This document shows, piece by piece, positions 2,936-9,373 of a DNA stretch of 9,373 nucleotides. This stretch comes from a virus (Duplodnaviria > Heunggongvirae > Uroviricota > Caudoviricetes). A program made the translations under genes and the position numbers. The stretch is from IMG/VR virus record IMGVR_UViG_2695420792_000007; one strand, 5' to 3'. The first letter of the stretch is position 1; every line of letters starts with the position of its first letter. The notes under the pieces are model-generated. The model made no database searches, was not told where the DNA came from, and saw only the letters and a program-made list of their open reading frames with translations.

Positions 2936-4984
2936 ATGTCGAAAGGGGCAGACATCATTGATGTCATGCAACGCCTGGGCGGTGTGGCTGATCGTCTGGA
3001 TTATCGTAAAGCGGCGGCGCTGGGTTCCACCTTTCTGACACTGGGCGCTGCGCCAGAGGTTGCAGCCAGTGCAGCAAACGCGATGGTGCGTGAATTGTCC
3101 ATTGCCACCATGCAAAGCAAGAGTTTCTTTGAAGGGATGAATCTGCTGAAACTCAATCCTGAAGTGATTGAAAAGCAGATGACGAAGGATGCGATGGGAA
3201 CTATCCAGCGCGTACTGGAGAAGGTGAACGCACTGCCGCAGGATAAACGTCTGTCTGCCATGACCATGTTGTTTGGTAAAGAGTTTGGCGATGACGCGGC
3301 GAAACTGGCAAACAACCTGCCGGAACTGCAGCGCCAGCTAAAACTGACAGCGGGCAATGATGCGCTCGGCTCCATGCAGAAAGAATCCGACATTAACAAG
3401 GACTCACTTTCTGCGCAGTGGTTGCTGGTCAAAACCGGAGCGCAGAACACCTTCAGCAGCCTGGGCGAAACGCTGCGCCAGCCGCTGATGGATATTCTGT
3501 ACACGGTGAAAAGCATCACGGGGGCGTTGCGCCGCTGGGTGGAAGCTAACCCGGAACTGACAGGCACACTGATGAAAGTAGCCGCTGTGGTGGCTGCGGT
3601 TACCGTAGGCCTCGGAACCTTAGCGGTGGCGCTGGCTGCAGTGCTGGGGCCGCTGGCAGTGATTCGTCTGGGATTCTCTGTGCTGGGTATCAAAACGTTA
3701 CCTTCCGTTACGGCAGCAGTAACCCGAACCAGCAGCGCGTTGTCCTGGCTGGCTGGCGCACCACTGGCACTGTTGCGACGCGGGCTTGCTTCATCGGGCA
3801 ACGCCGCAGGTTTACTTACTGCGCCGTTGTCGTCTTTGCGCCGCACGGCATTACTGACGGGAAATGTCCTGAAAACTGTAGCAGGTGCGCCGGTTGCACT
3901 TTTGCGGTCTGGATTATCCGGTTTACGTGCTGTTGCTGTGATGTTTATGAATCCTCTGGCGGTACTGCGCGGTGGACTGGCCGCCGCAGGCACGGTGCTG
4001 CGAGTACTGGCATCTGGTCCACTGGTGATGCTGCGCGTTGCCCTGTATGCCGTATCTGGTCTGTTAGGTGCTCTGCTCAGTCCGATAGGTCTTGTGGTTA
4101 CTGCACTGGCGGGCGTGGCGCTGGTTGTCTGGAAATACTGGCAACCCATCACCGCATTTCTTGGTGGCGTGGTGGAGGGATTCAAAGCGGCGGCAGGTCC
4201 CGTCAGTGAAGCATTCGAACCGCTTAAGCCCGTGTTCCAGTGGATTGGCGACAAAGTACAGGCGCTGTGGGGCTGGTTTACTGATCTGCTGACGCCCGTT
4301 AAGTCGACCTCTGCCGAACTGCAGAGTGCAGCGGCAATGGGGCGACGATTCGGGGAGGCACTGGCGGAAGGGCTAAATATGGTCATGCATCCGCTGGACT
4401 CCCTGAAATCCGGCGTTTCCTGGTTGCTGGAGAAGCTCGGCATTGTCAGTAAAGAGGTCGCAAAGGCAAAACTGCCGGAAAGCGTGACGCGTCAGCAACC
4501 TGCGACGGTGAATGCAGACGGTAAAGTGATGATGCCATCGGGTGGTTTTCCATCATGGGGATATGGCTTTGCGGGGATGTATGACAGCGGCGGGTATATC
4601 CCGCGCGGGCAGTTTGGCATCGTCGGTGAAAACGGGCCGGAAATTGTTAACGGCCCGGCAAATGTGACCAGCCGGAGAAATACAGCTGCACTGGCTGCCG
4701 TTGTTACCGGAATGATGGGAGTTGCTGCCGCGCCAGCAGAGCTTCCACCGTTGCACCCTTTGGCACTTCCCGCGAAAGGTGGAGAAGCAATTGTGAGTCG
4801 CGCAGCCACTGTGCCGCCCGTTTACAGGATTGAGGCACCGACGCAGATCATCATCCAGACGCAGCCAGGACAAAGTGCGCAGGATATTGCGCGGGAGGTG
4901 GCCCGCCAGCTTGATGAACGTGAACGCAGGCTGAAGGCAAAGGCCAGGAGTAACTACAGCGATCAGGGGGGATACGACGCATGA
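2936..4984 (+). CDS. Phage tail tape measure protein (P2 gpT-like), 5'-truncated; first in-frame ATG at 2936, frame open from 2858
   Basis: 682-aa ORF with a tape-measure-like N-region (...LGSTFLTLGAAPEVAASAANAMVRELSIATMQ...LFGKEFGDDAAKLANNLPELQRQL...), a central hydrophobic region with repeated PLxxLRxGL motifs, and a C-terminal Gly-rich end. The stop overlaps the gpU start (ATGA at 4981-4984). It is about 100+ residues shorter than the roughly 815 aa recalled for P2 T and has no RBS-equipped native start. Confidence 0.8.
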   Translation: MSKGADIIDVMQRLGGVADRLDYRKAAALGSTFLTLGAAPEVAASAANAMVRELSIATMQSKSFFEGMNLLKLNPEVIEKQMTKDAMGTIQRVLEKVNALPQDKRLSAMTMLFGKEFGDDAAKLANNLPELQRQLKLTAGNDALGSMQKESDINKDSLSAQWLLVKTGAQNTFSSLGETLRQPLMDILYTVKSITGALRRWVEANPELTGTLMKVAAVVAAVTVGLGTLAVALAAVLGPLAVIRLGFSVLGIKTLPSVTAAVTRTSSALSWLAGAPLALLRRGLASSGNAAGLLTAPLSSLRRTALLTGNVLKTVAGAPVALLRSGLSGLRAVAVMFMNPLAVLRGGLAAAGTVLRVLASGPLVMLRVALYAVSGLLGALLSPIGLVVTALAGVALVVWKYWQPITAFLGGVVEGFKAAAGPVSEAFEPLKPVFQWIGDKVQALWGWFTDLLTPVKSTSAELQSAAAMGRRFGEALAEGLNMVMHPLDSLKSGVSWLLEKLGIVSKEVAKAKLPESVTRQQPATVNADGKVMMPSGGFPSWGYGFAGMYDSGGYIPRGQFGIVGENGPEIVNGPANVTSRRNTAALAAVVTGMMGVAAAPAELPPLHPLALPAKGGEAIVSRAATVPPVYRIEAPTQIIIQTQPGQSAQDIAREVARQLDERERRLKAKARSNYSDQGGYDA

Positions 4985-5466
4985 TGATGGTGCTGGGATT
5001 GTACGTGTTTATGCTGCGCACCGTGCCGTATCAGGAACTGCAGTATCAGCGCAGCTGGCGACATGCGGCTAACAGCCGGGTAAATCGTCGTCCGTCCACG
5101 CAGTTTCTGGGACCGGACAACGACATGCTGACGCTTTCCGGTGTTCTTATGCCGGAGATAACAGGCGGCAGGCTGTCGTTGCTGGCACTGGAGCAGATGG
5201 CAGAACAGGGGAAAGCATGGCCTCTGATTGAAGGCAGCGGCACGATTTACGGCATGTATGTGATTGAGGGACTGAATCAGACTAAAACGGAGTTTTTCCG
5301 CGACGGTATGCCGCGCCGGATTGAGTTCACCCTGTCGCTCAAACGGGTGGATGAATCCCTGTCCGATATGTTCGGTGATCTCAGTGCGCAGCTGAATAAT
5401 CTGCAGGGAACGGCAACATCAGCCTTAAGCGATATCAGTAAAACGGTGGGAGGGCTTCTGTCGTGA
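4981..5466 (+). CDS. Phage tail protein gpU-like
   Basis: 161 aa, MMMVLGLYVFMLRTVPYQELQYQRSWRH..., matches the recalled P2 gpU N-terminus and length (about 159 aa). Start overlaps the T stop and the stop overlaps the D start (GTGA), indicating translational coupling in the F operon order T-U-D. Confidence 0.85.
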   Translation: MMMVLGLYVFMLRTVPYQELQYQRSWRHAANSRVNRRPSTQFLGPDNDMLTLSGVLMPEITGGRLSLLALEQMAEQGKAWPLIEGSGTIYGMYVIEGLNQTKTEFFRDGMPRRIEFTLSLKRVDESLSDMFGDLSAQLNNLQGTATSALSDISKTVGGLLS

Positions 5467-6209
5467 ATTTCAGCTCTGAACTGCTTAACAAAGGCAACAA
5501 AACTCCGGCATTCAGCATCAGTATTGAAGGCAGGGATATCACCACTGTGCTGGACAACCGCCTGATGGGGCTGACGCTGACGGATAACCGGGGATTTGAA
5601 GCGGACCAGCTTGATCTGGAGCTGGACGACGCCGATGGAAAAATCGTGCTGCCGCGCCGTGGTGCGGTCATTACGCTGGCGCTGGGCTGGAAGGGGCAGC
5701 CGCTTTTCCCGAAAGGGGCATTCACGGTGGACGAGATTGAACACACTGGCGCACCGGACCGCCTGACTATCCGGGCGCGAAGTGCTGATTTTCGGGAAAC
5801 CCTGAATACCCGCGAACCTGCGAAGAAAGAAAGCACCACGGTGAAGCGTAAGCGCAGAACTAAGAAGCAGAAGAAAGAGCCAGAAGCGAAGCAGGGCGAT
5901 TACCTGGTGGGTACGGATGAAAACGTGCTGGTACTTAATCGCACTTATGCCAACCGGAGCAACGCCGAACGAGCGGCGAAAATGCAGTGGGAACGCCTGC
6001 AACGCGGCGTTGCGTCATTCTCGCTACAACTGGCAGAAGGGCGGGCAGATCTCTACACGGAAATGCCAGTGAAAGTCAGTGGCTTTAAACAGCCGATAGA
6101 TGATGCGGAATGGACCATTACGACTCTGACGCATACCGTCAGCCCGGATAACGGTTTTACGACCAGTCTGGAGCTTGAAGTGAGGATTGATGATTTCGAA
6201 ATGGAATGA
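5463..6209 (+). CDS. Phage tail protein gpD-like (late gene D), apparently shortened by an internal in-frame deletion
   Basis: 248 aa from a GTG start. N-terminal (...LTDNRGFEADQLDLELDDADG...VDEIEHTGAPDRLTIRARSADFRETLN) and C-terminal (...WERLQRGVASFSLQLAEGRADLYTEMPVKVSGFK...GFTTSLELEVR) regions match recalled P2 gpD, but the protein is about 140 aa shorter than the roughly 387 aa recalled. Confidence 0.75.
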   Translation: MNFSSELLNKGNKTPAFSISIEGRDITTVLDNRLMGLTLTDNRGFEADQLDLELDDADGKIVLPRRGAVITLALGWKGQPLFPKGAFTVDEIEHTGAPDRLTIRARSADFRETLNTREPAKKESTTVKRKRRTKKQKKEPEAKQGDYLVGTDENVLVLNRTYANRSNAERAAKMQWERLQRGVASFSLQLAEGRADLYTEMPVKVSGFKQPIDDAEWTITTLTHTVSPDNGFTTSLELEVRIDDFEME

Positions 6210-6299
6210 TTCTTCGCAATGGAGAACTTTTAAGTTTGCAAAATGGAATAATGCGGTATCATTATTGTGAATTTAGCAAAAATGGGGAGAACTCGAAAA

Positions 6300-6518
6300 A
6301 TGATGATTTGCCCACTGTGTGGAAGTGCCGCCCATACTCGCAGCAGTTTTCAGGTATCTTCATTGACCAAAGAGCGTTACAACCAGTGCCAGAACATTAA
6401 CTGCAGCCATACTTTTGTTACCCATGAAACTTTTGTTCGTTCGATTGCAACGCCAAAAGAGTCAAATCCGGTTCAGCCGCATCCAATGAAATCAGGACAG
6501 GTGGCGCTCTCTCTTTGA
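6300..6518 (+). CDS. ogr: Ogr/Delta-family zinc-finger late transcription activator
   Basis: MMICPLCGSAAHTRSSFQVSSLTKERYNQCQNINCSHTFVTHETFVRSIATPKESNPVQPHPMKSGQ... has the CxxC...CxxxxC zinc-binding pattern and matches recalled P2 Ogr (72 aa, ...CPLCQHAAHARTS...KERYHQCQNVNCSATF...RPHP...SGQ). GGGGAGA at 6284-6290 sits 9 nt upstream of the ATG at 6300; the track's 83-aa ORF starts at an upstream GTG (6267) that is probably not used. Confidence 0.85.
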   Translation: MMICPLCGSAAHTRSSFQVSSLTKERYNQCQNINCSHTFVTHETFVRSIATPKESNPVQPHPMKSGQVALSL

Positions 6519-6598
6519 CGCTGCCGCCATTTTGTCGCCATCGTTAAAAAACAGTGTTTCTAACATCATGATTTTAAACAGCTTAAATTTCAGGCAAC

Positions 6599-6641
6599 AA
6601 AAAACCCATCAACCTTGAACCGAAATGGCGGGGTTGATGGG
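6599..6641 (-). terminator. Putative rho-independent terminator for leftward transcription (ybjL), or att-associated hairpin
   Basis: A 10-bp inverted repeat, CCCATCAACC (6605-6614) and GGTTGATGGG (6632-6641), encloses a 17-nt loop and is preceded on the plus strand by A6 (6599-6604), giving a U-tract after the stem on the minus strand. It lies about 110 nt downstream of the ybjL stop, so the assignment is uncertain. Confidence 0.4.
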
Positions 6642-6753
6642 CTCCACAAAATGGGGACATCAAAGAAAAGCAGTGGCACTAATTAAGACTGATGCCCTGC
6701 GGAAAAGTTCTGCGGTTGTGCAAAAAAATTTCATTTTCAGGGCAACTTCAGTT

Positions 6754-8439
6754 TTATCCTAATCCTGGCCATACCATGACGATGATTGTCCCTGCCAGCG
6801 TCAGCAGGACGTTGGCGATTGCATAGGTGCCCGCATAGCCCAGCGCCGGGATGTTACTGCGAGCTGTATCACTGATGATCTCCATTGCCGGCGCGCAGGT
6901 ACGTGCGCCCATCATTGCGCCGAACAACAGCGCGCGGTTCATTCGCAATACATAAGCACCGAACAAGAAACAGATAACCACGGGCACCAGACTGACAATC
7001 AATCCGGCAATCAACATCTGACCGCCAATCGCGCCCAGGCCGTTATTAATACCGCTACCGGCGCTCAGACCAACGCCTGCCATAAACACCATCAAGCCGA
7101 ACTCTTTCACCATGCTTAATGCACCCTGCGGAATGTAACCGAAGGTCGGGTGGTTAGCACGCATAAAGCCCAGCATAATTCCGGCGAATAACAACCCGGC
7201 AGCGTTCCCCATGCCGAAACTGAATGTGCTGAACTGGAAGGTGATCATCCCGATCATCAGCCCAATAACAAAGAAGGCGCAGAATGCCAGCAGGTCAGTG
7301 ACCTGGCTGTGAATCGAGATAAAGCCGATGCGATCGGCGATGGTTTTTACGCGGCGGGCATCGCCGCTGACTTGTAAAACGTCACCTTTGTTAAGCACGA
7401 CGTTGTCATCTATCGGCATCTCAATCTGGCTACGAATGACGCGGTTAAGGAAGCAACCGTGATCGGTCAACTTCAGTTGTGCGAGACGTTTACCTACAGC
7501 GTTATGGTTTTTAACGACCACTTCTTCAGTGACGATACGCATGTCGAGAAGGTCACGATCGAAAACTTCTTTACCGTTACGGAAGCTGGGATCGAGTCGG
7601 GCATGGGCGTCGGGATAGCCTACCAACGCTATTTCATCGCCCATTTGTAGCACGGCATCACCGTCTGGATTTGCCAGAATCCCGTTACGTCGAATACGTT
7701 CAATGTAGCAGCCGGTTTGTCGATAAATACCCAGTTCACGCAGATTTTTGCCGTCGGTCCAGGCCACCAGTTCCGGGCCGACGCGATAGGCGCGGATCAC
7801 CGGTAAATAAACCTTACGGTTGGCATCAGTGTCCAGGCCACGTTCGCGGGCGATTTGCTGGGCGCTGGTCTGTAAGTCCTGATGCTGCAATTTCGGCAAG
7901 TAACGCGCACCAACAATCAAACTCACCAGACCGATTAAATAGGTTAAGGCATACCCGAGGCTCAGATTATCCAGTGCCAGTGAGAGCTGCCTGCTTTCCA
8001 TGCCGGAATGACGCAGTGTATCGCCAGCACCGACCAGAACCGGTGTCGACGTCATAGAGCCTGCTAACATACCGGCCGTCAGGCCAATATCCCAGCCAAA
8101 CAGCTTACCTAACCCTAAGGCGATCACCAGCGCACTGCCAACCATCACCAGTGCTAACATTAGGTAATTTTTCCCATCGCGAAAAAAAATGGAAAAAAAG
8201 TTCGGTCCGGCTTCGACCCCGACGCAGAAAATAAACAGCATAAAGCCAAGATTAAGCGCATCGGTGTTAATGCTGAAATGTTGTTGGCCTAATAACAGCG
8301 ATACGACTAAAACGCCAATGGAATTACCCAGTTGGATCGAACCAAGTCGTAACTTTCCGAGACATAGCCCAAGCGCGAGGACCACAAATAATAACAGAAT
8401 GTAATTCCCATTTAACAATTCGGCGACGTTTATATTCAC
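6754..8439 (-). CDS. ybjL: Putative transport protein YbjL (AAE/YidE-family membrane transporter with central TrkA-C-like domains)
   Basis: 561-aa ORF from a GTG start ([24 protein letters not shown]...VMVWPGLG) with hydrophobic N- and C-terminal halves around a soluble central region. Sequence, length and the ybjL-ybjM-grxA neighbourhood match E. coli YbjL as recalled. Confidence 0.9.
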
Positions 8440-8708
8440 GGAGGCTAACTTCTTGTTTACTAGTAAGCTGTTGAAAGAAATGGTAATTTACGATAATGTT
8501 TTTTACCGGAATTCAGGGCGCAGATTCATTCAGCGCACCTAAACGATAGTAAAGCAACAATATATTTTACTAGTGTAATCACATTAGGTATCAACGGCTA
8601 TATGAATTGCGTTGGCCTATATTAGCATGGAATGCGAAGCGGCTTTATCTTACTGAACGCCACACTGGCGAAAAATGTGTTCGATAGACGCAGTGTCAGG
8701 AGGAACGA

Positions 8709-9086
8709 GTGAAACATAAACAACGTTGGGCGGGGGCAATCTGCTGTTTTGTCCTCTTCATTGTGGTGTGCCTTTTTCTGGCGACGCACATGAAAGGCGC
8801 TTTTCGGGCTGCCGGGCATCCTGAAATCGGCTTGCTATTTTTCATTCTTCCTGGAGCAGTCGCCAGCTTCTTTTCACAGCGTAGAGAAGTCCTGAAACCT
8901 CTGTTTGGCGCAATGCTGGCGGCACCCTGTTCGATGCTCATTATGCGGCTGTTTTTTTCACCGACGCGCTCATTCTGGCAAGAGCTGGCATGGTTACTAA
9001 GCGCGGTGTTCTGGTGTGCGCTGGGGGCACTGTGTTTCTTATTTATCAGTAGTTTGTTTAAACCACAGCACAGAAAAAATCAGTAA
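8709..9086 (+). CDS. ybjM: Inner membrane protein YbjM
   Basis: 125-aa hydrophobic protein MKHKQRWAGAICCFVLFIVVCLFL... from a GTG start, with AGGAGG at 8697-8702. It lies between ybjL and grxA, divergent from ybjL, as in the E. coli chromosome. Confidence 0.85.
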   Translation: MKHKQRWAGAICCFVLFIVVCLFLATHMKGAFRAAGHPEIGLLFFILPGAVASFFSQRREVLKPLFGAMLAAPCSMLIMRLFFSPTRSFWQELAWLLSAVFWCALGALCFLFISSLFKPQHRKNQ

Positions 9087-9106
9087 AGCCCTCAACGCGA
9101 GGGCTT
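9074..9106 (-). terminator. Putative rho-independent terminator of grxA, overlapping the ybjM stop codon
   Basis: An 8-bp stem, AAGCCCTC (9086-9093) and GAGGGCTT (9099-9106), with a 5-nt loop sits just downstream of the grxA stop on the minus strand and is followed there by a T-rich tract (complement of A6 at 9074-9079). ybjM and grxA are convergent, so the hairpin may serve both. Confidence 0.55.
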
Positions 9107-9115
9107 GTCAGACGA

Positions 9116-9373
9116 TCAGGCGTCCAGATTTTCTTTCACCCATGCAGCAAAATCGGTATAGCCGCCGATATGTTGCTGATCGACAAAAATCTGCGGCACG
9201 GTTTCTACGGGTTTACCTGCCTTTTGTTGTAGATCTTCTTTAGTGATCCCTTCCGCACGAATATCTACATACTGATACTGAAAATCATCGCGTTCATTGC
9301 TCAATTTCTCAGCCAGATCTTTTGCACGCACACAGTAAGGGCAACCCGAACGACCAAAAATAACGGTTTGCAT
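9116..9373 (-). CDS. grxA: Glutaredoxin 1
   Basis: 85-aa ORF MQTVIFGRSGCPYCVRAKDLAEKL...GGYTDFAAWVKENLDA with the CPYC active site, matching E. coli GrxA. The start codon is the last three bases of the window. Confidence 0.95.
   Translation of the reverse strand: MQTVIFGRSGCPYCVRAKDLAEKLSNERDDFQYQYVDIRAEGITKEDLQQKAGKPVETVPQIFVDQQHIGGYTDFAAWVKENLDA

Follow-up and report, generated by a model that had tools for sequence, protein, structure and literature searches.

The 3' end of the small RNA gene rybB as attachment site of a P2-like prophage between ogr and ybjL

The analyzed window, a stretch of 9,373 nucleotides, contains a 235-bp spacer at positions 6519-6753 which parts the convergent genes ogr (+) and ybjL (−). 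This spacer is almost certainly the attR of a P2-like prophage that was inserted site-specifically by a tyrosine integrase into the 3' end of rybB. The spacer contains the sRNA gene rybB (6599-6677), and the 3' stem arm and U-tract of the RybB terminator make up the att core. Everything to the left of the junction, ogr and the tail genes, is prophage. The element is P2-like and belongs to the Peduoviridae (Felsduovirus in the literature) with a 186-type regulatory and integrase module. The rybB junction as such is already known as a published and common integration hotspot of P2-like/Felsduovirus phages.

The following genes were assigned in the window.

394-966 and 1817-2389: serine-invertase genes, two identical copies (ORF listing and Pfam)
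2532-2915: tail sheath gene, truncated (ORF listing and Pfam)
2936-4984: tape-measure gene, truncated (ORF listing and Pfam)
4981-5466: gpU (Pfam GpU)
5463-6209: gpD, shortened (Pfam GPD)
6300-6518, plus strand: ogr, late-gene activator and last prophage gene (Pfam PF04606 Ogr_Delta, E 5e-22)
6754-8439, minus strand: ybjL, chromosomal, aspartate:alanine antiporter family (Pfam Asp-Al_Ex and TrkA_C)
Beyond ybjL, at the right end of the window: ybjM, then partial grxA

According to Pfam the late tail genes T, U and D together with ogr are the final phage genes ahead of the junction, and the prophage side matches P2-like prophages and phages that are already annotated, with 96-98% nucleotide identity. 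For ogr the ORF listing contains an alternative GTG start at 6267; the 72-aa form is the RefSeq annotation in the lysogen ECCHD184, which is 100% identical here. The original prediction had described ogr and ybjL as convergent and 235 bp apart, with which the ORF listing and Pfam agree.

In order to locate the junction, window positions 6200-7000 were used as a megablast query against 5,426 complete E. coli genomes. The ybjL side was matched in 5,419 of them, the ogr side too in only 1,115. In the genomes without the ogr side the match ran only rightwards and started at query base 385 or 397, which corresponds to window position 6584 or 6596. Therefore, the junction lies inside the interval 6519-6753, as had been predicted. 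The start at 6596 is found with empty sites of the K-12 allele and the start at 6584 with the O157 allele. Positions 6596-6753 are identical to MG1655 (158/158). In MG1655 and in K-12 NBRC 3301 rcdA is followed directly by rybB and ybjL without a prophage, which confirms that K-12 is unoccupied at this locus, and in O157:H7 rcdA is followed by ybjL without phage genes between them. Empty sites, about 80% of the genomes, show a clean 174-bp rcdA-rybB-ybjL spacer. The spacer is thus not colinear with prophage-free E. coli over its entire length, and comparison of the attL and attR of lysogens with empty sites defines the core.

The elements of the spacer are given below.

6522-6543, plus strand: two tandem 11-bp direct repeats, TGCCGCCATTT and TGTCGCCATCG, putative arm-type Int-binding sites of the attP P arm
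6561-6573, minus strand: candidate IHF-like site AATCATGATGTTA, 1 mismatch to WATCAANNNNTTR, in an A/T-rich stretch between arm repeats and core
6584-6609: extended att core of 26 bp; O157-type empty sites have the same sequence as their attB
6596-6609: minimal perfect att core AACAAAAAACCCAT, 14 bp, common to every attL, attR and attB examined
6599-6677, minus strand: rybB, sigma-E-dependent Hfq-binding sRNA gene, intact, identical to MG1655 b4417
6605-6641, minus strand: RybB intrinsic terminator hairpin (folding, Rfam and arm complementarity)
6684-6710, minus strand: sigma-E-type rybB promoter with −35 GAACTT at 6705-6710, a 16-bp spacer, −10 TCTTA at 6684-6688 and +1 at 6677

The annotation of MG1655 puts rybB (b4417) between rcdA and ybjL. 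The Rfam model RF00110 matched at 6674-6596 with 105.3 bits (gathering score 40) over model positions 1-79 of 79. Most RefSeq PGAP tables carry no feature at this position. The original prediction had treated the target as an anonymous rcdA-ybjL spacer or as a feature of ybjL; according to the MG1655 annotation and Rfam it is the annotated 3' end of rybB. We take GAACTT-N16-TCTTA to be a predicted sigma-E promoter on the basis of the consensus GGAACTT-N16-TCnaA and of the RybB literature.

The two arms of the hairpin (6605-6614 and 6632-6641) are complementary at 10 of 10 positions. Folding yielded −23.4/−24.1 kcal/mol with z values of −3.7/−3.2, and none of 200 shuffled sequences folded as well. 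On the minus strand the hairpin is directly followed by the U-tract TTTTTTGTT (6604-6596); the minus-strand sequence after the hairpin, UUUUUUGUU, is complementary to the left-hand portion of the core. Consequently, the strong hairpin that had been noticed at 6605-6641 exists and is far stabler than shuffled sequences, but it is the chromosomal RybB terminator and not a phage or att structure. A generic terminator scan missed it because the loop exceeds the limit of the scan, so that folding and Rfam were decisive here. The att core comprises the last 11 nt of rybB, or 14 nt by the Rfam model, and rybB is intact at attR because the phage brings its own copy of the core bases.

The core AACAAAAAACCCAT is present once in the window, which stops short of the int end of the prophage. 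The attL sequences were taken from ECCHD184, CFT073 and the Klebsiella phage 4LV2017. ECCHD184 is 99.7% identical to window positions 5803-9373, which span attR, and 99.7-100% at the right end. In every related lysogen examined (ECCHD184, CFT073, 4LV2017) the core is repeated at the int-proximal end, where such a repeat had been anticipated, and the attL/attR annotation of 4LV2017 in GenBank (19-20 bp) overlaps it. To the left of 6596 in ECCHD184, a lysogen on the K-12 allele, attL reads host TAAGTTTTAGAT and attR reads phage TAAATTTCAGGC. To the right of 6609 the alignments showed host CAACCTTGAACC in attR and attB and phage TTATGTAAACGGG in attL. The flanks thus switch between host and phage on either side of 6596-6609, and strand exchange therefore falls inside these 14 bp.

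E. coli is dimorphic in the 12 bp that follow the rybB U-tract on its 3' side (6584-6595), with four differences between the two types. The K-12-type left half is TAAGTTTTAGAT, whereas the O157/CFT073-type is TAAATTTCAGGC, identical to the phage core. Since the host left half in CFT073 and at O157-type sites equals that of the phage, the core there is perfect over 26-27 bp. In CFT073 the perfect repeat of attL and attR is 27 bp long, since it extends leftwards by one more base, which is A in CFT073 and T in the window. Among empty sites the phage-like allele is about twice as common (16 rows versus 7 in an evenly spaced sample of hits), and lysogens are documented on both attB alleles, on the K-12-type in ECCHD184 and on the O157-type in CFT073. 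Two 81-nt chimeric attL queries matched about 1,100 genomes each; megablast bridged the four mismatches, so these counts mix the alleles. The phage-like attB allele of empty sites was also considered as a scar of excision; this interpretation was dropped as unnecessary, since normal Int exchange within 6596-6609 would not transfer the bases concerned.

On the phage side of attR the repeats TGCCGCCATTT and TGTCGCCATCG begin right after the ogr stop codon and match the arm consensus tgccGCCActt. For the 186-type P2-like phages Nilsson et al. reported at least two direct arm repeats with this consensus on each side of the core (PMC3448106). A matching pair, TGCCGCCACTT and TGTCGCCACTT, adjoins int on the other arm in the attL of ECCHD184, CFT073 and 4LV2017. 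In strain 2c3 the cargo downstream of ogr is different and the spacer has diverged; the arm repeats and the core are nevertheless kept, which supports them as functional parts of attP. The IHF-like motif occurs 8 times in the whole window with 7.7 expected, no more than by chance; therefore, position alone supports the site at 6561-6573. In 2c3 a 1-mismatch IHF-like site, TATCATTAACTTA, occupies the same alignment columns despite the diverged spacer. Altogether, 6519-6595 looks like the P arm of a 186-type attP. Binding of Int to the arm repeats, binding of IHF and the exact 6-8-bp overlap region are inferred by analogy. In the 2c3 locus ogr and the arm repeats are separated by an extra 120-aa minus-strand ORF (L005, 5447-5809) and by some 600 bp of A/T-rich, unrelated DNA, which makes this a third cargo position at the edge of attP.

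At the other prophage end the relatives carry a tyrosine integrase gene (Pfam Int_N and Phage_integrase) and CI and CII genes. An 89-aa ORF without Pfam match is located between int and the P' arm repeats in ECCHD184 (L003, 15995-16264) and CFT073 (L007, 2505-2774). 4LV2017 lacks this ORF, and there the 3' end of int overlaps with the arm repeats.

We propose that the final ~14-27 bp of the rybB region are duplicated in the phage attP; this copy would comprise the 3' stem arm of the terminator, the U-tract and a few bases beyond. The tyrosine integrase would recombine attP with the 3' end of rybB, with strand exchange within AACAAAAAACCCAT (6596-6609). Following the paradigm of P2, 186 and lambda, Int would bridge arm and core sites, IHF would bend the P arm, the exchange would take place in a 6-8-bp overlap inside 6596-6609, and excision would require an Apl/Cox-type factor on the P' arm. 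The resulting attR would be ordered as phage P arm (6519-6595), core and intact rybB. The corresponding attL beside rcdA, outside the window, would retain only 14 bp of rybB as a stub, with the P' arm and int of the phage behind it. In this manner the target gene would be regenerated by the same logic as in integration into the 3' ends of tRNA or tmRNA genes.

Two other explanations of the junction were considered. The hairpin and the core might represent the terminator of ybjL, or of rcdA, in an otherwise featureless spacer, so that the phage would target the terminator of a protein gene. The hairpin does lie downstream of ybjL on the same strand, in empty sites it is found 16 bp downstream of rcdA, and most PGAP tables show nothing else there. 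However, rybB is annotated in MG1655 exactly at the hairpin and core, the Rfam covariance model matches at full length with 105 bits, and a sigma-E-type promoter is suitably spaced upstream of rybB. We consider the protein-gene terminator very improbable. The hairpin may also halt read-through from ybjL; the gene overlapped by the core is nevertheless rybB. A substitute rcdA terminator formed by phage sequence at attL was looked for by folding as well and was dropped, the hairpin there being weak (−5.5 kcal/mol, z −0.66).

Alternatively, the phage DNA might be ancestral and K-12-like genomes might have lost it by deletion, with 6584-6609 as the deletion scar. The dimorphic left half of attB could be taken as a footprint of the phage, the commoner O157-type empty allele being equal to the phage side for 12 further bases. 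On the other hand, the roughly 80% of genomes that are empty have the clean 174-bp spacer, and at the occupied sites an integrase is present and the core is directly repeated, with arm-type sites on either side. Moreover, near-identical phages reside at the homologous rybB of Klebsiella, and according to the literature of Salmonella Typhi too, and lysogens on both attB alleles are what repeated independent integration predicts. Loss by deletion is thus extremely improbable, and site-specific integration into rybB is retained.

Three queries found the prophage at this site in 1,115, 1,120 and 1,101 of the 5,426 complete E. coli genomes, i.e., in about 20%. The designation as strain-specific accessory DNA in the original prediction was therefore overstated. 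Archer et al. described the "rybB ncRNA" as insertion site of the P2-type prophages Rybb*W, Rybb*B and Rybb*Cr of E. coli W, B and Crooks, with none in K-12; Rybb*B carries the retron Ec86 (PMC3032704). Hochhauser et al. listed hotspot #29 within rybB, with Felsduovirus occupants only, in 109/1,351 genomes (PMC10121019), and Hudson et al. placed the Klebsiella element Kpn38RybB "precisely within the gene for RybB" (PMC4048246). PhiECO1/2/3 are among the P2-type prophages at rybB in E. coli, and Nilsson et al. located PhiECO3 in CFT073 at 908870-942351 (PMC3448106). PhiECO3 is the rcdA-ybjL prophage of CFT073 analyzed here, and the ends published for it match the position where the 14-bp core begins. 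The phi-b0847 of CFT073 of Wiles et al. is the same prophage (PMC3573123). Literature searches under the names ybjL and ybjK returned nothing relevant; the site is indexed as rybB and b0847.

With the other P2-type prophages at rybB in E. coli the window shares the rcdA-ybjL site, the core and the arm repeats; the int family matches, and ogr is identical (WP_000972391.1 in both ECCHD184 and CFT073). These prophages differ in that none of those in the 5,426 complete genomes has the three rearrangements of the window copy. At the "moron" position between fibre and sheath genes the window copy carries an invertase instead of neaT (PMC3573123). The Klebsiella phage 4LV2017 (KY271398, Elveevirus) exhibits 97-99% nucleotide identity over tape measure, U, D, ogr and the P arm. 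Its host flank is Klebsiella rybB, its GenBank attL/attR span the same core, and the core identity extends over 19 bp, CAGGCAACAAAAAACCCAT. Differences are the other host genus of 4LV2017 and Kpn38RybB, Klebsiella, and the position of int, which directly adjoins the P' arm in 4LV2017 but is separated from it by the extra 89-aa ORF in the E. coli elements.

The coliphages 186 and P2 have the same ogr-attP-int layout and a CI/CII-type regulatory region, and two direct arm-type repeats of the consensus tgccGCCActt on each side of the core are found in the 186-type attP and likewise here. Coliphage 186 integrates into tRNA-Ile genes and P2 at locI/locH. The target here is rybB, and therefore the core-binding specificity of Int differs. 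The P2 sites locI/locH were listed under a cyaR RNA insertion site (PMC3032704). Integration into the 3' ends of tRNA or tmRNA genes (e.g., Fels-2/SopE-phi at ssrA) is similar in that there, too, a small structured RNA gene shares its 3' end with the core and is regenerated by the phage copy. Unlike those targets, rybB encodes an Hfq-dependent regulatory sRNA, and only the terminator stem arm and the U-tract, 11-14 nt, are duplicated.

The prophage copy in the window shows three rearrangements that were observed in 0 of 5,426 complete genomes. A 1,423-bp insertion consists of an exact 970-bp direct repeat (313-1282 = 1736-2705) and, between the two copies, a tail-fibre/assembly cassette of 453 bp (1283-1735). 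The repeat unit contains the invertase gene together with 174 nt from the start of the sheath gene. In strain MB20 the 453-bp cassette adjoins pinE in an e14-like element, where the cassette is 100% identical and the invertase only 83%. The junction 1282/1283 was contiguous in 0/5,426 complete genomes; the insertion is either genuine, a duplication-insertion, or an artefact that arose in assembling an invertible region. The sequence TTCTCCCAAACCAACGTTTAAGAAAA is found just upstream of each invertase gene, at 318-343 and 1741-1766, and presumably resembles the 26-bp crossover sites of the Hin/Gin/Cin/Pin invertases. To its left the two copies differ, which is what one would expect where an invertible tail-fibre segment ends.

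Compared to intact relatives, an out-of-frame deletion of 2,806 bp joins the sheath gene to the tape-measure gene at 2882/2883. With it the tube gene and E/E' are gone, as are the greater part of the sheath gene and the initial third of the tape-measure gene. The junction was found in no complete E. coli genome, and a 35-nt pattern across it had no match in viral, genome and metagenome contigs. Gene D has an in-frame deletion of 354 bp (118 codons) at ~5803-5813 between the 11-bp repeats TGAATACCCGC and TGCATACCCGC, which match at 10/11 positions. In all 323 genomes whose match covered 80% or more of the flanking query gene D was full-length, the match consisting of two pieces over a span of 425 bp. 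Tail genes are lost, and therefore the prophage as written cannot build a tail or form virions. The three rearrangements reflect either a decayed prophage or a faulty assembly, and the attR assignment is unaffected. The ability to excise depends on int and the excisionase gene, both outside the window.

The loop of the RybB terminator contains CCGCCATTT (6623-6631, minus strand), which reproduces the phage arm-type repeat at 6524-6532 exactly in inverted orientation. Klebsiella RybB has CCGCCACTT at the position of CCGCCATTT, still closer to the arm consensus, and the RybB body contains a one-mismatch copy of the arm motif, TGTCCCCATT (6650-6659, minus strand). The background of the arm motif in the fetched loci is ~0.07 per kb, and the match in the RybB loop was noticed post hoc; it is probably a coincidence. 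An active host side, on which the N-terminal domain of Int would bind these host-encoded sites, is speculative and very unlikely. The same applies to a separate idea on ogr: no terminator belonging to ogr precedes rybB, and read-through of the late genes might therefore yield an antisense RNA to RybB. The loop motif is the only route to anything new at this junction. If the Int N-terminal domain did bind host sites, attB and attR would be "arm-assisted", and an arm-assisted attB could explain the fidelity of this phage family to rybB across genera.

The junction itself adds little beyond the publications; the value of the analysis lies in the correct annotation of rybB and the att core. Annotators should call attR at 6584-6609 and rybB at 6599-6677, and not an anonymous ybjL-proximal junction. 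According to the cited papers the P2-like occupants carry variable cargo, including defence systems, the retron Ec86 and neaT. As a common hotspot with variable cargo, occupied in about one fifth of the genomes, the site is therefore a landmark for accessory-gene hunting.
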